A stretch of 64,000 nucleotides of DNA from Corallococcus exiguus (GCF_012985275.1 NZ_JABEKY010000003.1); one strand, 5' to 3'. Shown: positions 11,499 through 17,740, counted from the stretch's first letter. The notes: generated by a model from the letters alone, not told the origin. Made by a program: numbers and translations.

Positions 11499-12533
11499 AT
11501 GTCCAGGATCCAACCGGAATTCAAAAGTTTGGCATTGCTGTTTGCCATTTGCGTCACGAGCGCGGTCCCGGACGCCTCGGCTCAGGGGTCCGAGGGACTC
11601 ACGGGGGTCTATTCGAACAAGGGCGGGACGCTCGCCATCGTCGAGGGCAGCAACGAGACGCTCGTGCACTTCTCGGGCTCGTTCCCGCAGGGCAGCAGCG
11701 CGGGCACCTGCGATTGCGCTTTGGTCGTCCAGAAGAAGACAGTCACGAATTGGTCACTTCATCAGGCGGGTGAGGAAGACGCTTGGACGCTGCGCGTCAA
11801 TCCCAAGCAATTCGTCCTGGAGTCGGGTCCGTCACCGTCCTGTTGCGGCGCCGGCTACTCAGGCAAGGACACGTTCGCCCGGAGCACCTCCAAGCCACTG
11901 AGCATCTGCAAGGTGAAGGTGTCCAAGGCGGTCTTCCACGCGTCTGACGCGGCCAACACGCCGCGCAAGGCGTTCGTGGTGTCTGGCGACGCGGTGGAGG
12001 CCTACGTCGACCCGGTGGAGCCGGACTTCCTCGCCGCGCGCTTCCAGGGCCCCCAGAAGGCCACGGCGGGGCTGCTCAAGCGCGAGGACCTGGACTGCGC
12101 GGCGGAAGGCGCGCCCACGGCCGCGAAGGCTCCCGTGGCCGCGGACAAGCTCCAGCCCTTCGCGGGGACGTGGGTGGAGTTGACGCGCCAGGGCAAGGGC
12201 TTCGTGGTGCTCAAGCCCTGCTCGGCCGCGACGCGCAGCTTCACCGTCAAGCCCGCGACGGGTGAGGTGGAGGTGCAGTTGGGGCAGGAGGCCACGACGA
12301 TGAAGGTGACGTCCGTGGAGGCCGGCAAGGGCGCCGGGACCTGGGTGCTGGGGCTCACGGCCGCGGACGGCAAGCCGGAGGCGCTCCAGTGGAAGACGGC
12401 CGACGCCGCCAAGGGCACCGTGACCGTGAACAGCCCGGACCTCTTCTCCCAGAGCCACGACTACGTGCGCCAGGAGAAGAAGTCCGCCTTCCCGTCCAAG
12501 CAGGAGACGGGGTGCGACGAGTTCGAGCGCTAA
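11499..12533 (+). CDS. hypothetical secreted protein
   Basis: It has a signal peptide (MSRIQPEFKSLALLFAICVTSAVPDASAQG), a good SD sequence (CAGGAGG) 8 nt upstream, several Cys pairs and coding-like composition. No family was recognised. Confidence 0.55.
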   Translation: MSRIQPEFKSLALLFAICVTSAVPDASAQGSEGLTGVYSNKGGTLAIVEGSNETLVHFSGSFPQGSSAGTCDCALVVQKKTVTNWSLHQAGEEDAWTLRVNPKQFVLESGPSPSCCGAGYSGKDTFARSTSKPLSICKVKVSKAVFHASDAANTPRKAFVVSGDAVEAYVDPVEPDFLAARFQGPQKATAGLLKREDLDCAAEGAPTAAKAPVAADKLQPFAGTWVELTRQGKGFVVLKPCSAATRSFTVKPATGEVEVQLGQEATTMKVTSVEAGKGAGTWVLGLTAADGKPEALQWKTADAAKGTVTVNSPDLFSQSHDYVRQEKKSAFPSKQETGCDEFER

Positions 12534-14110
12534 CGCGCCCGTGAACGCCGCCGGGCCCGCAGGCCCCCACCGAGCAGCAGCGCGACGAGCGCACCGGACA
12601 GGGGGCCACCCGCGGCCTGGCAGCTACCGTCATCCGAGGGCGTGCGCGGATCATCAATGGGATCCACGGGCCTGCCCGCGTCCACGGTCCCCGCATCGGG
12701 GGTGCCCGCATCCGCGCCAGCATCGGGCGTCCCGGCGTCGGTTCCGGCGTCCGTGCCCGCATCCGTCGCATGGAGCGGCGCGCAGGACGCGGCCTGGCCG
12801 GTGGCCGCGATGCACAGCCGGCCATAGCGGCCCAGGCCTTCCATCCGGCCGTCCACGACCGCCACCATCACGCGCGTGGCGTCATCCGCGGCCACCTGGG
12901 CGCGCAGGGCGTCCGGCCCGTCCACGGTCGCCACCCGCAGTACGGCGTCATCCGTGACGGCCGCGACGACCAGGTGCACCGTGGCCGGATCGATGCCCGG
13001 CTCGGGCTCATACGAGGCGCCCACGAAGGACGCGCCGCCGGGGACCTCGAAGATCCGCGAGGCCGCCGCCGCGACGCGCACGCGGTCGAGCGTGGTGGGG
13101 AACTCCGCCGCCGTCTTCGCCACCGGTGCATACCCCTCCCCTCGCGCGTAGCCGAACCCCGGCGTCGCGCGCGGGCCGGTGCCCAGGTTCCAGGTGGCGA
13201 ATTGGGCGAAGGCCGCGTCGAAGCTGGAGGCGAAGTCGCGGCGCAGACAGGTGTCCAGCAGCACCGGCCAGCGGGCCTCCGGCTGGCGCACGGACTCCTC
13301 CAGCAGCGCGACGAGCGCGCCGTCACCGTAGCGCTCGCCCACGAACTGGAAGAAGAGCCCCGCGCCGTAGATGAAGGTCACGCCGGGCCCTGCGGGGTCC
13401 AGCACCAGCGTGCTGTCCGGAGTCAGCATGTAGCCGCGGGTGAAGTGCTCCAGGTCGTCGAGCGCGGGCTCGAAGCGCTCGGTGGCCCAGACGGCGGTGC
13501 CCTCGGAGGCGACGCCGCCCAGGTCGGGCCGGTAGGCGGCCTGCACCGCGTGGAAGAACTCGTGGCTGGCCAGGATCTCCACGGCCTCTGCGTCGGACGG
13601 GTAGTTGTAGCCCGTGAAGTCGTTCTCCTGGAGCATGAAGCCGGTGCAGCGCGTGACTCCCTCCAGGCAGGTCTCCTGCCGGAAGGCGCCGTCGCCAATC
13701 CCCGCGAAGTCCACCAGGTACACGTCGAAGCGGCCGTCGCCGCCGTCGTCCCCGGCCGGATTCGTGTCGTCGGGCGGCAGGCGGAAGCCCAGGTCCACGT
13801 AGAACGTCGCCACGCGTTCGTAGGTGCGCCCGACGAGCTCCACGAAGTCGGGCACGCCGCTGCCATCCGCGTCAGCCACGGGCACGGCGTGGGTGCCCTG
13901 GCGGGTGAAGTGGATGCGGAAGCGCCCGCCCGGCGACACGACGGACTCCACCGTGTCCCCGGGCTCATAGCGCGGCGCCTGCGCGCCAGGCGAGGTGGGC
14001 CGCCCGGACTCGGCGACCCGCTTCTGTACGGCCTCCCGCTCGTGCGGGAGGCCACGCGGGGTTCCCGCGCCGGCCAGCAGCAGGAGCAGCGTGGGAACCC
14101 CGGGGGTCAT
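12530..14110 (-). CDS. secreted zinc metalloprotease (HExxH) with a C-terminal MYXO-CTERM sorting signal
   Basis: Using internal Met 26 gives a signal peptide MTPGVPTLLLLLAGAG, and that ATG overlaps the upstream gene's stop (TGATG at 14108-14112). The HEFFHAVQAAY motif is present. DAGT-rich low-complexity (TDAGTDAGTDAGTPDAGADAGTPDAGTVDAG) precedes the C-terminal ...SCQAAGGPLSGALVALLLGGGLRARRRSRAR, which is Cys plus a hydrophobic helix plus an Arg tail, i.e. MYXO-CTERM-like. Confidence 0.7.
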   Translation of the reverse strand: MTPGVPTLLLLLAGAGTPRGLPHEREAVQKRVAESGRPTSPGAQAPRYEPGDTVESVVSPGGRFRIHFTRQGTHAVPVADADGSGVPDFVELVGRTYERVATFYVDLGFRLPPDDTNPAGDDGGDGRFDVYLVDFAGIGDGAFRQETCLEGVTRCTGFMLQENDFTGYNYPSDAEAVEILASHEFFHAVQAAYRPDLGGVASEGTAVWATERFEPALDDLEHFTRGYMLTPDSTLVLDPAGPGVTFIYGAGLFFQFVGERYGDGALVALLEESVRQPEARWPVLLDTCLRRDFASSFDAAFAQFATWNLGTGPRATPGFGYARGEGYAPVAKTAAEFPTTLDRVRVAAAASRIFEVPGGASFVGASYEPEPGIDPATVHLVVAAVTDDAVLRVATVDGPDALRAQVAADDATRVMVAVVDGRMEGLGRYGRLCIAATGQAASCAPLHATDAGTDAGTDAGTPDAGADAGTPDAGTVDAGRPVDPIDDPRTPSDDGSCQAAGGPLSGALVALLLGGGLRARRRSRAR

Positions 14111-15144
14111 CACGGCAGGTAGGCCCACCGCAGGCGGATCGACCCGGCGCTGGTGGAAGAGCTCACCGAGCCCGTCGTGTCGCACTGCGACTGCACGGTG
14201 GGCTCATAGTAGGCCTTGACCTGCAGCTTCGCGTGACGGCCGTCCGCCAACTGGATGAGGAAGACCTTGTTCGTCATCTGCAGGCACTGGGCATAGTCCC
14301 AGAACGTGAGGGTCTGGGTCGCCGGGCTCTGGAGGCCGAACGGGTCCCCGCTGAACGTGCAGGTGTCGGGGGTGTAGTAGTTCTCCGCCTGGAACTGAGC
14401 ATCGGTAGGCACGGACGTCACCGCTTCGAACGTCGTGCCGTCCGGCGTCGGTGCCACTGTCACGCACGACGGCCCGGACACGCCGCTGTTGAAGCGCACG
14501 ACGTACCGGCGCACCGCGACGTCCCACGCCGTCGAGCTCAGCGCGGCCTGATCATCGATGTCGACCTTCTGGAGCCCCGTCGGCGTGAAGCGCGCGTAGG
14601 TGTACGACTCCGGAACGCTGGTGCCACCCGCGCGGCCGTCCAGGAACGTGAGGTACTCGCCCTGGGTCGTGCCTTCCTCGGTCACGCCGCCGGTGGCGAC
14701 GGTGGTCCGGAGCCGAAGCTTGTCGATGCTCTGCTCCGTGCAGGCCACGGCGTTGCGGCACAGCTCCGCGCCACCGTCCGTGGGAGTGCCGGCGTCGGTC
14801 TCCGTACCCGCGTCGGTCTCCGTGCCCGCGTCCGTGGTCGTACCTGCGTCCGTCGTCGTGCCCGCGTCGGTGGTGGTCCCGGCGTCGGTGGTGGTGCCCG
14901 CGTCCGTCTCCGGCTCTTCGTCCGGCGTCAGGGTGCGCAGCTCGCACTTCTTGTCCGCGTTGCAGGTCCAGGCCTGGCCCGCGGGGGCCGCGCCCTCATC
15001 ACGGCAGTCGAACGCATCCACGCAGTCGTCGCTGCTGCATCCCGGCGCCACCACGGCCAGCGCGAGGGCCGCCAGGGCCCCCATGCCGAACCAACGTGCA
15101 CCGCTCTTCCGGACCGCCCCTTCGGGGTTGCTCATCGTCGTCAC
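14110..15144 (-). CDS. lipoprotein with tandem (T/E)TDAGT repeats and a Cys-containing C-terminal domain
   Basis: The lipobox is ALALAVVAPGCSSDD; the start could be the internal Met at about 15084. There is a sevenfold TTDAGT/ETDAGT repeat. The C-terminal domain of about 200 aa contains 6 Cys. The gene is translationally coupled to the downstream metalloprotease. Confidence 0.65.
   Translation of the reverse strand: MTTMSNPEGAVRKSGARWFGMGALAALALAVVAPGCSSDDCVDAFDCRDEGAAPAGQAWTCNADKKCELRTLTPDEEPETDAGTTTDAGTTTDAGTTTDAGTTTDAGTETDAGTETDAGTPTDGGAELCRNAVACTEQSIDKLRLRTTVATGGVTEEGTTQGEYLTFLDGRAGGTSVPESYTYARFTPTGLQKVDIDDQAALSSTAWDVAVRRYVVRFNSGVSGPSCVTVAPTPDGTTFEAVTSVPTDAQFQAENYYTPDTCTFSGDPFGLQSPATQTLTFWDYAQCLQMTNKVFLIQLADGRHAKLQVKAYYEPTVQSQCDTTGSVSSSTSAGSIRLRWAYLP
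14783..14910. repeat. seven tandem 18-bp units encoding (T/E)TDAGT in the lipoprotein gene
   Basis: Tandem near-identical units GGTGCCCGCGTCGGTGGT on the plus strand were read directly. The antisense reading gives the artefactual VPAS repeats seen in track ORF 14600-15832. Confidence 0.8.
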
Positions 15145-15229
15145 CTTTCGCCGCGGAGACCCGCCGCCGTTCGATGGGGACGATCTCTATTCGATAACGA
15201 TTATCATTTTCAATATCGACGATCCATTT

Positions 15230-17506: not shown

Positions 17507-17587
17507 GGCACACCTGCTCGCGGGAGTGGGGTTCAGCCGCGAGTCATTGCGAGCCCCATGCCGTCACCGCTCGCCCTGGAACGGCTC

Positions 17588-17636
17588 CGCACCGCACCGG
17601 ACTGGCGCGGACACTCGCTCCACTCCGGTGCGCGGT
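17588..17636. promoter_or_regulatory. dyad-symmetric element ACCGCACCGGA-N21-TCCGGTGCGCGGT in the divergent MVP / LysR intergenic region
   Basis: An imperfect inverted repeat was read from the sequence inside the 234-bp divergent promoter region. It is a candidate LTTR operator. Confidence 0.3.
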
Positions 17637-17740
17637 GTTCCAGACTGGAGCGCATTTCGAACAACCAGCGCCGGGGTTTCCGCATCGTCCGACCCGTGTG
17701 GCTGGTACCGTTTGATGAGCAGGTATGGAGAACCCTCACG

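Follow-up and report, generated by a model that had tools for sequence, protein, structure and literature searches.

In M. xanthus, the gene pair MXAN_6641-MXAN_6640 is annotated with a putative Fur box and rises along with iron-uptake genes in co-culture with prey (log2 2.57/2.47 for MXAN_6641 and 2.38/1.64 for MXAN_6640), and its FPKM profile tracks that of MXAN_1317, a gene of the heme-uptake operon (PMC9548883 supplement, in extract). In P. gingivalis, HmuY and the gingipains serve heme supply (PMC10100897, PMC2671838). Bacterial MVP homologues have already been reported in Myxococcales, Cytophagales and Oscillatoriales (bioRxiv 10.1101/872010), and the sigma-54 promoters of M. xanthus follow the consensus TGGCACG-N4-TTGC(T/A), of which TCGC variants have been validated (PMC9765219).

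We analysed a 64,000-nucleotide stretch of Corallococcus exiguus DNA (GCF_012985275.1 NZ_JABEKY010000003.1; hereafter the window) in which representatives of these families lie side by side. An initial annotation had described a minus-strand trio of MVP homologue, lipoprotein and zinc metalloprotease, and had read it as one operon headed by MVP and divergent from a LysR regulator. The trio is real, with ORFs and family matches in agreement:

15230..17506, minus strand: MVP homologue ORF, 758 aa (Pfam)
14110-15144, minus strand: HmuY-family lipoprotein ORF, 344 aa with a GTG start, likely 14110..15135 (Pfam HmuY)
12530-14110/14185, minus strand: MXAN_6640-family HExxH protease ORF (NCBIfam)
14108..14112, minus strand: TGATG stop/start overlap, with the lipoprotein TGA at 14112-14110 and the protease ATG at 14110-14108 (sequence reading)
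12529..15229, minus strand: dispensable or relocatable cassette of promoter and operator, HmuY and protease, matching a precise gap in Corallococcus sp. CA053C
17741..18643, plus strand: LysR regulator (Pfam HTH_1 and LysR_substrate), context outside the unit

The closest homologue of the lipoprotein-protease pair is MXAN_6641-MXAN_6640, in which both families recur in identical order, with annotated ORFs that overlap as they do in the window; the window protease is 61% identical to MXAN_6640, the founding member of NCBIfam NF045524. The reading that we favour, and regard as likely, is one of two adjacent, separately regulated units: MVP alone, and an HmuY-protease operon with a Fur-type site that would serve heme or iron scavenging.

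Products of the coupled pair

The lipoprotein matches Pfam HmuY at 50.8 bits (cutoff 27; 2.6e-13) and contains, in order, a signal peptide, a conserved Cys36 (at least 90% conserved in alignment A1), a small Cys-rich domain, a TDAGT(T/E) linker and the HmuY domain (~130-344). The HmuY domain is modelled by AlphaFold with pLDDT above 90, and the top 12 Foldseek matches in the PDB all belong to the HmuY family (BfrB, 1.3e-9; HmuY, 1.3e-7), with only 11-22% sequence identity to solved HmuY proteins. The ORF was correctly located, but the GTG at 15144 from which it had been drawn, 85 bp from MVP, is most likely not its start. The ATG at 15135 is preceded by an RBS, AAAGGTGA, database homologues begin at MSNP, and in one compared locus (L021) the GTG falls outside the reading frame of the lipoprotein ORF. 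Because the start is probably at 15135, the gap after MVP is ~94 bp.

The protease scores 238.9 bits against NCBIfam MXAN_6640_HExxH (cutoff 140), with no Pfam family matched. A signal peptide is followed by an M30-like gluzincin domain, a PPC-like beta-sandwich, a DAGT linker and a MYXO-CTERM-like tail; the catalytic motif HEFFH occupies residues 183-187, with E203, and the fold, as modelled, is that of an M30-like gluzincin. Corallococcus proteases have no lipobox Cys, with LAGAG where L-x-G-C-G stood. As the initial annotation had noted, the lipoprotein stop and protease start overlap. Similar 4-nt or 1-nt overlaps of an HmuY stop with a protease start codon occur in 24 other loci, and the protease lies immediately 3' of HmuY in 37 of the 44 independent HmuY loci whose sequence extends far enough downstream. 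These data support the view that the two genes form a translationally coupled unit. Both genes also encode DAGT linkers as tandem repeats (period 18 bp, 6.7 copies, at 14792-14912 in the lipoprotein gene; period 12 bp, 5.2 copies, at 12702-12766 in the protease gene). The initial annotation had pointed to this shared linker, but by itself it matched dozens of unrelated proteins, being a common low-complexity linker in Corallococcus, and therefore indicates no specific link.

By analogy with characterized HmuY proteins, the ligand of the lipoprotein would be heme. In the alignment of myxobacterial HmuY sequences, G162, Y183, W207, D208, N219, G221, G224 and Y284 are invariant and no invariant His or Met was found as a possible heme ligand, and the His pair that ligates heme in P. 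gingivalis HmuY (PMC12106395, in extract) has no invariant counterpart. It is possible, though decidedly less probable than the favoured reading, that the pair is regulated as we propose but takes no part in heme acquisition, its HmuY-like domain binding another ligand or presenting a substrate within a metal-starvation surface protease system that might, for example, degrade prey proteins or remodel the envelope. The ligand argument for this is tempered by HmuY homologues that use different heme ligands, Met for example (PMC12106395, in extract), and by the near invariance of M290 and several Tyr in the myxobacterial alignment. No TonB-dependent receptor or heme ABC transporter is encoded adjacent to the pair, the identity to solved HmuY proteins is low, and in M. 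xanthus a further HmuY, MXAN_1317, belongs to the true heme-uptake operon; the M. xanthus pair is nevertheless co-induced with heme-uptake genes. We retain heme or iron scavenging as the likelier role.

Operator and predicted promoter of the pair

The gap between MVP and the lipoprotein gene is AT-rich, as had been noticed (GC 0.475 in 15160-15239 versus 0.6-0.79 in the flanks). The suggestion that it might hold an internal promoter or regulatory site was borne out by an operator lying within a conserved -35/-10 frame. The ATCGA(T/C)-type repeats reported there turn out to be the two arms of a palindrome of Fur type:

15193..15211, minus strand: Fur-type operator GAAAATGATAATCGTTATC, 17/19, two mismatches to GATAATGATAATCATTATC
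15192-15206, minus strand: 15-nt core TGATAATCGTTATCG, part of the predicted Fur-type operator
15184..15213, minus strand: putative sigma-70-type promoter serving HmuY and the protease (from aligned sequences)
15213-15208, minus strand: -35 element TTGAAA, beginning 17 nt after the MVP stop
15189-15184, minus strand: -10 element TAGAGA (TAnnnT-like), separated from the -35 by an 18-nt spacer that the operator fills

The Fur-type box is a single site in 64 kb and had no matches in 100 shuffles. Every locus that bears the cassette keeps it 5' of HmuY, across genera too, and the same operator precedes HmuY-protease pairs whose genomic locations are unrelated, in Myxococcus, Pyxidicoccus, Hyalangium and metagenomes from soil. 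When the 896 kb of fetched DNA were searched for the core TGAGAATCGTTMTCA, where M stands for A or C, with at most two mismatches, 15 matches emerged, all 15 of them just 5' of an HmuY gene, and a PWM scan agreed. Aligned loci from Myxococcus, Pyxidicoccus, Hyalangium and metagenomes keep TTGAAw, a spacing of 17-18 nt and TAnnnT (with the -10 variants TAGGGT, TAGCGT, TAAAGT and TACGTT), while the flanks diverge. A generic promoter scan called no promoter in the gap, because the window's weak -10, TAGAGA, matches at just 3/6 positions. In the stretch from the MVP stop to the predicted HmuY promoter, a terminator scan and RNA folding gave neither a terminator nor a stable hairpin, so transcription of MVP may read through into the pair.

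The resemblance of the box to known Fur sites suggests that Fur, predicted in M. xanthus to be MXAN_3702, would be the binding protein, and that the pair would be under iron control in Corallococcus. Beyond Corallococcus the core of the operator reads TGAGAA-TCG-TTCTCA, a symmetrical departure from the half-site of classical Fur boxes; a Fur paralogue could be the binder. Several Fur-family proteins are encoded in myxobacteria. The AGAA-N3-TTCT centre of the operator presumably resembles Irr-type ICE boxes. We nonetheless consider it unlikely that, within the same architecture, the site is read by a Fur-family paralogue (Zur, PerR or Irr-like) or an unrelated dimeric repressor responding to another metal or to oxidative stress. 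The core in most genera is indeed TGAGAA-N3-TTCTCA and not TGATAA-N3-TTATCA, but the Corallococcus box equals the classical one at 17/19; the protease is a zinc enzyme, but characterized HmuY-family proteins are heme-linked (PMC2671838, PMC10100897), and a similar box lies 5' of a TonB-dependent receptor gene. The published M. xanthus Fur box is annotated as ‘putative’ (PMC9548883, in extract), yet the expression of that pair tracks iron-uptake genes, those for heme uptake among them. Fur remains our preferred candidate.

Separation of the pair from MVP

MVP is nearby in one of the 54 HmuY loci that were fetched independently of MVP, the other 53 having the pair without it, and in Hyalangium versicolor the two are on different contigs (MVP in L009, the pair in L029). 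Among the MVP loci fetched from other genera, none carries the pair. Within Corallococcus, the pair adjoins MVP in nine of 15 MVP loci (the window and eight other genomes), whereas the cassette is absent, deleted or moved, from the remaining six, four of which (L001-L004) keep a full-length MVP. Deletion scars, four different breakpoints and one relocation were seen among these loci. In Corallococcus sp. CA053C, exactly the stretch corresponding to 12529..15229 is missing from the MVP locus (L004), and the cassette is found elsewhere in the genome (L079) with approximately the last 10 bp of MVP attached. In L079, the PWM scan also placed a weaker box of the operator type before a TonB-dependent receptor gene. 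The cassette has been repeatedly lost or moved in Corallococcus; as to direction, we infer that it moved beside MVP in a Corallococcus ancestor and would, after arrival, have been deleted or moved several times. The initial annotation would have given up the operon if no other MVP-bearing genome shared the gene order. Eight other Corallococcus genomes share it, so that objection does not arise, but we judge shared order too weak to test an operon.

MVP itself is recognized by Pfam (MVP_shoulder, 8.7e-45; Vault_2, 1.6e-31; Vault, 1.4e-30; also Vault_3 and Vault_4) and is 85-98% identical to the MVP of Corallococcus, Hyalangium, Archangium and Vitiosangium. Its upstream region contains candidate control elements:

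17548..17562, minus strand: sigma-54-type promoter candidate GGCAT-GGGGC-TCGCA (-24 GG, -12 GC), ~42 nt 5' of the start codon
17597..17652: three boxes CGC[T/G]CCA[G/C]TC[T/C]GG (17640-17652 minus, 17616-17628 plus, 17597-17609 minus), candidate EBP (enhancer) sites

Taken by itself, the sigma-54 pattern is not significantly enriched in the window (3 matches versus 1.12 expected). The columns GGCA.G.GGCT.GCA are invariant in 13 Corallococcus MVP upstream sequences (alignment A2) and likewise in 14 from several genera (alignment A4), the general form across genera being GGCAC-N5-TSGCA (S = C or G), and 12 of 13 non-Corallococcus loci have a sigma-54-type match ~58-70 nt 5' of the aligned MVP start. 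The box pattern, which was derived from the three copies, has those three exact matches and no others in the window; blocks centred on CCA-N3-TGG are kept at the same aligned positions across genera (A4), also in Corallococcus genomes without LysR (A2). No EBP gene adjoins MVP. These alignments suggest that a sigma-54-type promoter probably drives MVP, with the three boxes as candidate enhancer sites. MVP is probably a transcription unit of its own.

The dyad described 5' of MVP exists (17593-17609 pairs with 17616-17632, 17 nt, 88% complementary) and corresponds to copies 2 and 3 of the three boxes. Its assignment to LysR did not hold: LysR directly adjoins MVP in this window only, two genes separate them in L019, and the dyad is kept in genomes without LysR there. 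LysR opens an island of oxidoreductase genes with lower GC3 (ADH, SDR, aldo-keto reductase and NmrA-like by Pfam; GC3 0.82-0.85 for the genes scored versus 0.90-0.97 for most neighbours, with LysR under the 0.80 cut), which among the MVP loci compared is present in the window and L019 only. It is thus very improbable that MVP heads a single operon with divergent LysR control through the dyad and that the protease and lipoprotein work with a vault-like particle: the common strand, short gaps, lack of a minus-strand terminator-like site or stable RNA structure in the gap and gene order kept in eight other genomes stand against a conserved promoter and operator inside the gap, a pair that does without MVP in 53/54 other loci and in genera with MVP elsewhere, and is lost or moved in 6/15 Corallococcus loci, breakpoints and a relocation that left MVP full-length in L001-L004, and a dyad that belongs to the sigma-54-type promoter region.

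Proposed regulation and comparison with known systems

In the arrangement of two separate units, MVP would be transcribed from its sigma-54 promoter when an enhancer-binding protein occupies the three upstream boxes, and the HmuY-protease operon would start 17 nt after the MVP stop from its own sigma-70-type promoter. Under iron-replete conditions Fur-Fe(II) on the operator would block transcription and could also stop read-through from MVP; iron shortage, for instance on prey contact, would free the operator and allow both coupled genes to be expressed. The operon would thereby supply a lipoprotein of the HmuY family at the surface and a zinc endopeptidase of M30-like type that carries a MYXO-CTERM-like anchor. 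The protease may degrade hemoproteins or other metalloproteins, by analogy with HmuY and gingipains of P. gingivalis, and the lipoprotein may capture the heme set free and pass it to a TonB-dependent receptor, whose gene would lie elsewhere, the cassette itself having none.

The window MVP resembles reported bacterial MVP in its Vault repeats, shoulder domain and C-terminal coiled-coil region; that report (bioRxiv 10.1101/872010) does not cover gene neighbourhood or regulation, and the sigma-54-type promoter and three boxes come from the present analysis. Compared with the sigma-54/EBP promoters of M. xanthus, such as those targeted by Nla28 (PMC9765219), the MVP promoter, GGCACG-N4-TCGCA, fits TGGCACG-N4-TTGC(T/A), and several repeated upstream sites occur in both, but the MVP boxes (CTCCA-N3-TGGAG type) do not fit the Nla28 half-site CT(C/G)CG(C/G)AG. 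The protease shares only 12% sequence identity with lugdulysin and hyicolysin, MEROPS M30 zinc endopeptidases, from which it also differs by its extra PPC-like beta-sandwich, low-complexity linker and MYXO-CTERM-like tail.

With the P. gingivalis Hmu system the window shares an HmuY-fold surface lipoprotein (Foldseek matches to 6ewm at 1.3e-7 and 3h8t at 1.7e-7) and the coupling of that lipoprotein to surface proteolysis. Here, however, one operon encodes both the lipoprotein and the protease, an M30-like zinc endopeptidase with a predicted MYXO-CTERM-like tail anchor, whereas gingipains are cysteine proteases encoded elsewhere; the operon has neither an HmuR receptor nor transport genes, and the two-His ligand pair of P. 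gingivalis HmuY is not conserved. Like a classical Fur-repressed promoter, the one predicted for the pair has its operator over the -35/-10 spacer, 5' of a metal-acquisition-type gene, and the window operator shares 17/19 positions and dyad symmetry with the classical Fur box (GATAATGATAATCATTATC; 7-1-7 form TGATAATnATTATCA), from which most myxobacterial copies differ by a central TCG and by G/C at positions 4 and 12, which are symmetric. The closest likeness is to M. xanthus: the same operator lies 5' of the Myxococcus pair (TGAGAATCGTTATCA in L080), although the Corallococcus operator is nearer the classical Fur box, the M. xanthus protease differs from its Corallococcus counterparts at the lipobox Cys, and the Myxococcus pair adjoins an alkylresorcinol cluster whereas the window pair lies directly 3' of MVP. 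The cassette would thus be the Corallococcus counterpart of MXAN_6641-MXAN_6640.

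Gene products of the MVP-HmuY-protease stretch

An initial annotation had placed a major vault protein homologue (MVP) at the head of an operon with lipoprotein and metalloprotease genes, divergent from a LysR gene, with a dyad in the region between. Three consecutive minus-strand ORFs are present as it described, and the lipoprotein stop codon TGA (14112-14110) shares a base with the protease ATG (14110-14108), giving the reported TGATG overlap. The four genes concerned are as follows.

12530-14110, minus strand: MXAN_6640-family protease, ORF of 526 aa from the ATG at 14110 (NCBIfam NF045524)
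14110-15144, minus strand: HmuY-family lipoprotein, ORF of 344 aa when read from a GTG (Pfam HmuY)
15230-17506, minus strand: MVP, ORF of 758 aa (Pfam MVP_shoulder, 8.7e-45; Vault, Vault_2, Vault_3, Vault_4)
17741-18643, plus strand: LysR gene

The five Pfam families found above cutoff in MVP cover the vault repeat domains and the shoulder domain. We revised the lipoprotein start: it is almost certainly the ATG at 15135 rather than the GTG at 15144, because a ribosome-binding site (AAAGGTGA) lies upstream of the ATG, the GTG is out of frame in one homologous locus (L021) and database homologues begin MSNP.

The lipoprotein scores 50.8 bits against a cutoff of 27 for Pfam HmuY (PF14064; 2.6e-13). 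Its AlphaFold model has a mean pLDDT of 79, exceeding 90 over residues 130-344, and the 12 best Foldseek matches of this model in the PDB all belong to the HmuY family, with target TM-scores of up to 0.70; the matches include BfrB, HmuY, BF2707, BfrC, BVU_2192, Tfo and PinO. The hydrophobic N-terminus ends in VVAPGC, the lipobox Cys36 is at least 90% conserved in an alignment of 39 homologues, and a signal peptide with lipidated Cys36 is predicted. Y183 and Y284 are invariant in the HmuY alignment, and M290, Y312 and Y313 are nearly so. No His or Met is invariant among the 39 myxobacterial homologues, so that heme ligation by the lipoprotein is putative. According to PMC12106395, P. gingivalis HmuY binds heme iron through two His, and other homologues use other ligands. 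HmuY is not encoded together with a TonB-dependent receptor in the manner of hmuYR-type operons; its neighbours in the window are MVP and a convergent 344-aa ORF, and its constant partner in other loci is the protease, not a receptor. We put the odds of heme capture as the function of the pair at about even. A non-heme role, which would overlap with the main model below, seems rather unlikely.

The protease matches the NCBIfam model for the 'MXAN_6640 family putative metalloprotease' (NF045524) with 9.4e-71 and 238.9 bits against a cutoff of 140. It carries an HExxH motif with a downstream Glu (H183, E184, H187 and E203 are invariant in the alignment), and its structural model has a mean pLDDT of 81. 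A catalytic domain is followed by a PPC/collagen-binding-like beta-sandwich, a DAGT linker, an invariant Cys497 preceded by a nearly invariant G496, a predicted helix (505-522) and an Arg-rich tail, RARRRSRAR. This end resembles a MYXO-CTERM signal: residues 437-523 gave weak NCBIfam matches to related MYXO-CTERM-bearing models, and TIGR03901 itself gave none. All Corallococcus copies of the protease have LAGAG in the N-terminal part (window 14060-14085) where most homologues from other genera have the lipobox L-x-G-C-G. The Corallococcus protease has apparently lost N-terminal lipidation and would depend on its MYXO-CTERM-like tail.

The DAGT linkers of lipoprotein and protease are both true tandem repeats. 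A functional tie between the two proteins through these linkers was considered and rejected: DAGT is a generic Corallococcus low-complexity linker, which alone matched dozens of unrelated proteins. The TDAGT(T/E) linker of the lipoprotein (14764-14912) is an 18-bp tandem repeat of 6.7 copies whose number varies among strains, and the protease linker (12702-12766) is a 12-bp repeat; both are length-variable and fast-evolving.

Among HmuY homologues and loci collected from genomes and one metagenome scan, an MXAN_6640-family gene lies immediately 3' of HmuY in 37 of 44 independent loci (each with at least 700 bp downstream); in 24, the HmuY stop shares 4 nt or 1 nt with a start codon. MVP is nearby in one of 54 HmuY loci, that of Corallococcus sp. 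EGB. In H. versicolor, MVP (L009) and the pair (L029) sit on separate contigs. The window protease shares 97% identity with a C. exiguus protein and 61% with MXAN_6640 (P0092) of M. xanthus, and the gene 5' of MXAN_6640, MXAN_6641, is itself of the HmuY family.

Probable promoter and operator of the HmuY-protease pair

The gap of approximately 94 bp between MVP and the lipoprotein gene had been singled out as AT-rich and as a possible internal promoter or regulatory site. It is the lowest-GC stretch of the region (GC 0.475 versus 0.6-0.79), and a conserved promoter-like frame with an operator at 15184-15213 bears out the second suggestion. Alignment of the gaps of cassette-bearing genomes, the cassette being this promoter/operator with the lipoprotein and protease genes (12529-15229, minus strand), revealed an invariant CGATATTGAAAATGA(T/G)AATCGTTATCGA. 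Two elements can be delimited in the gap.

15193-15211, minus strand: Fur-type operator GAAAATGATAATCGTTATC, identical at 17 of 19 positions to the classical 19-bp Fur box GATAATGATAATCATTATC
15213-15208 and 15189-15184, minus strand: putative sigma-70-type promoter of the pair, -35 TTGAAA and -10 TAGAGA, from aligned loci

The -35 hexamer starts 17 nt past the MVP stop codon. The operator is the sole site with three or fewer mismatches to the Fur box in the 64 kb, and 100 shuffles gave no match. Its dyad symmetry reads TGATAA-TCG-TTATCG in the window and becomes a perfect palindrome, TGAGAA-TCG-TTCTCA, in the H. versicolor locus L029 and in L042. The same box stands 5' of HmuY in Pyxidicoccus (L027), M. 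fulvus (L028), H. versicolor, an M. xanthus-type locus (L080) and several soil contigs, with the core TGAGAATCGTT(A/C)TCA in these non-Corallococcus loci. In total, the operator was found in all nine cassette-bearing Corallococcus loci, in a relocated copy (L079) and in L027, L028, L029, L031, L032, L042, L068 and L080. Allowing two mismatches, the core occurs 15 times in 896 kb of fetched DNA, each time immediately 5' of an HmuY gene, and a PWM scan agrees with this search; distant metagenomic HmuY homologues have no recognisable box. Wherever it occurs, the box takes up the stretch that separates TTGAA(A/T) from a TAnnnT hexamer 17-18 nt farther on, and the flanks are unrelated. This arrangement is classic for a repressor operator placed inside a sigma-70-type promoter. 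A generic scan found no sigma-70 promoter in 12000-19000; it missed that of the pair because the -10 element, TAGAGA, is weak. These data make an independent promoter and operator for the HmuY-protease pair very probable.

On the similarity of the site to the Fur box, Fur is probably the protein that binds it. The M. xanthus counterpart is consistent with this: a supplementary table of PMC9548883, citing a thesis, lists a putative Fur box for MXAN_6641-MXAN_6640, and in tables of that study both genes are induced together with genes for iron and heme uptake. The increases tabulated there for co-culture with S. meliloti are log2 2.57/2.47 for MXAN_6641 and 2.38/1.64 for MXAN_6640. The tabulated FPKM values of MXAN_6641 over five conditions (431/547, 51/56, 32/29, 335/299 and 216/130) run parallel to those of MXAN_1317 (3316/3546, 165/260, 118/91, 1062/1150 and 614/367), listed in the same source as the HmuY of the heme-uptake operon MXAN_1314-1321, and MXAN_3702 appears there as the predicted global Fur repressor. 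Against the 17 matching positions and this iron-linked profile, another regulator acting at the same operator is improbable.

Two weaker boxes of the same type were seen elsewhere: TTGACTTTGATATTCACTATCAATATCG in L079 (8025-8051), 50 bp 5' of a small ORF that is followed by a TonB-dependent receptor (Plug) gene, and TGAGAATCAGTATCG in L029 (9303-9329), approximately 24 bp 5' of a DUF6607 gene. These two boxes may mark further members of the same regulon. In L080 (5042-5062), the called HmuY start (340 aa) lies 3 nt past the operator and within the putative promoter; the true start is probably farther downstream. An RNA element in the gap was considered and rejected, as the fold z-score was -0.64 and no Rfam family fell below E = 0.4 in 12000-19000.

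Gene order around MVP and mobility of the cassette

A scan of one genome per species yielded 26 MVP loci, and gene order was determined by tblastn of the window proteins against these loci and strain EGB. The window MVP is 97-98% identical to those of C. interemptor, C. exercitus and C. carmarthensis, which, with the protease identity given above, places the window in Corallococcus. The order MVP-HmuY-protease is kept in eight other Corallococcus or Corallococcus-like genomes (L005, L006, L007, L017, L019, L020, L021 and L078), making nine of 15 Corallococcus loci, and it does not hold wherever MVP occurs. In the other six (L001, L002, L003, L004, L024 and L025), MVP abuts the convergent 344-aa ORF. 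The pair was found near MVP in none of 13 loci from Hyalangium, Archangium, Vitiosangium and MAGs, nine of which include at least 2 kb downstream. MVP neighbours differ between genera, and none is a constant neighbour or operon partner.

The cassette-less loci carry scars with different breakpoints. L001 retains GTCGATATTG from the gap, joined to the final 68 nt of the protease gene; in L003 the final ~24 nt of that gene survive; L002 is missing the final 21 nt of MVP as well as the cassette, so that its MVP now ends at the protease stop codon; and L004, L024 and L025 lack exactly 15229-12529. Strains labelled C. exercitus differ, SDU142 having the cassette and AB043A lacking it. In Corallococcus sp. 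CA053C, the cassette has moved to another contig (L079), where its neighbours are nrfA-type cytochrome genes and a gene for a TonB-dependent receptor; homology to the window spans 15240 to 12545, and the last ~10 bp of MVP, plus a scrap of the MVP 3' end, remain attached. The scarred losses and the CA053C move indicate that the cassette is a discrete unit, dispensable for MVP and relocatable.

MVP itself looks decayed in places: C. sicarius (L024, 10001-11036) matches residues 412-754 only, with a frameshift near 667; C. llansteffanensis (L025, 5659-6543) has an internal deletion that leaves residues 1-177 and 620-745; and an Archangium MAG (L026, 638-1463) has MVP fragments only. From these copies, MVP seems dispensable in some lineages. 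On the far side of the cassette, a gene for a protein with LysM and VgrG3-like C-terminal domains (9692-11410, minus strand) and the secreted 344-aa ORF of no family (11499-12533, plus strand) diverge around a second low-GC intergenic stretch (11360-11480, GC 0.46) and are linked in nearly all Corallococcus loci.

Only in the window does the LysR gene directly adjoin MVP; in L019 the two are 1.9 kb apart, with two genes between. LysR belongs to an island of LysR, zinc ADH, SDR, aldo-keto reductase and NmrA-like genes that occurs only in these two loci, has a GC3 below most neighbours and looks horizontally acquired. Beyond the block shared upstream of MVP, the DNA is highly variable among Corallococcus genomes (window 17653-22093; L019 6029-10000; L078 1-3589) and carries a tandem pair of GDSL-lipase genes, members of a 343-aa ORF family, small DUF5953/DUF6310 genes or the LysR island.

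Between MVP and HmuY there is no minus-strand terminator (four terminator-like sites in 12000-19000 versus 3.2 expected by chance) or stable hairpin before the cassette promoter, so read-through from MVP into the cassette is possible. Co-transcription of the three genes is less likely than first proposed, though conceivable. A single operon of MVP, lipoprotein and protease under LysR is very unlikely given the probable promoter and operator in the gap, the six of 15 Corallococcus loci without the pair and a LysR adjacency confined to the window. The order is not general enough for an MVP-headed operon, and the proposed functional tie of MVP to a surface protease and lipoprotein is unsupported, the pair being independent of MVP in other loci.

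The MVP upstream region and a model of two units

Only approximately 145-170 bp of upstream DNA (17507 to ~17652-17678) are common to all Corallococcus MVP genes, and they contain the following elements.

17562-17548, minus strand: candidate sigma-54-type promoter GGCAT-GGGGC-TCGCA, from conservation, with -24 GG and -12 GC at exact spacing
17640-17652, 17616-17628 and 17597-17609: three boxes centred on CCA-N3-TGG, conserved across genera

The block carries GGCA(C/T)G-N4-T(C/G)GCA, invariant in 13 Corallococcus sequences. Of the 13 Hyalangium, Archangium, Vitiosangium and MAG loci, 12 have the element, ~58-70 nt 5' of the aligned start of MVP, and in an alignment of 14 sequences it stands out as a block of invariant columns in a region only 66% identical overall. 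The window element matches the sigma-54 consensus TGGCACG-N4-TTGC(T/A), of which validated M. xanthus promoters include TCGC variants (PMC9765219). Within the window the pattern alone is not above chance (three matches versus 1.12 expected; 10 of 100 shuffles reach three), so the sigma-54 claim rests on cross-genus conservation and position. L022 (9670-10000) alone lacks the candidate promoter and the upstream boxes that the remaining MVP loci share; it is the most divergent locus, at 68% identity, and comes from a MAG labelled Planctomycetota.

The dyad assigned to LysR is real: 17593-17609 pairs with 17616-17632 at 88% complementarity. It corresponds to the last two boxes (17616-17628 and 17597-17609), lies inside the MVP-linked block and is conserved in genomes without LysR at the MVP locus; on this conservation we rejected LysR control of MVP through it. 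We read the block as a probable sigma-54 promoter plus an enhancer that an enhancer-binding protein (EBP) would occupy, and sigma-54 dependence of MVP is reasonably likely on the sequence evidence. No EBP gene adjoins MVP, the nearby response regulator (29180-30568) being a GGDEF protein. Nla28 was considered as the activator and is not supported, as the boxes do not match its half-site.

We propose that MVP stands alone and is probably activated through sigma-54 and an EBP, and that the HmuY-protease cassette would be a Fur-type-repressed operon, expressed under iron limitation, whose products would equip the cell surface with a protease and a lipoprotein of heme-binding type. This model as a whole we consider likely. 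In Corallococcus lineages where the adjacency persists, it is unlikely, though conceivable, that MVP transcripts started by sigma-54 continue across the 94-bp gap, which has no terminator, each time Fur leaves the operator; the signal that switches on the bacterial vault protein would then be a second input to the cassette, and MVP expression would be tied to nutrient piracy during predation or starvation.

The putative sigma-54 promoter and three-box enhancer would offer a first experimental handle on the timing of bacterial MVP production, and identifying the EBP for the boxes would reveal the conditions. An attractive but unsupported functional link between a vault protein and a surface protease is removed and a concrete annotation put in its place: the gap most probably holds the promoter and a Fur-type operator that serve an HmuY-metalloprotease module conserved in myxobacteria, a plausible heme/iron piracy device of predatory bacteria, for which sister strains naturally with or without the cassette provide a ready-made comparison.

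MVP homologues in myxobacteria have been described (bioRxiv 10.1101/872010), and for M. xanthus a supplementary table had listed the HmuY/MXAN_6640 pair with its putative Fur box; a literature search found MXAN_6640 and MXAN_6641 in no main text, only in that table. What is new here is modest: the cross-genus operator-in-promoter architecture, the repeated loss and relocation of the cassette with defined breakpoints, and, for bacterial MVP genes, a conserved sigma-54-type promoter with putative enhancer boxes. The best-studied comparison for the cassette is P. gingivalis, whose HmuY lipoprotein and proteases act together to supply heme (PMC10100897, PMC2671838).
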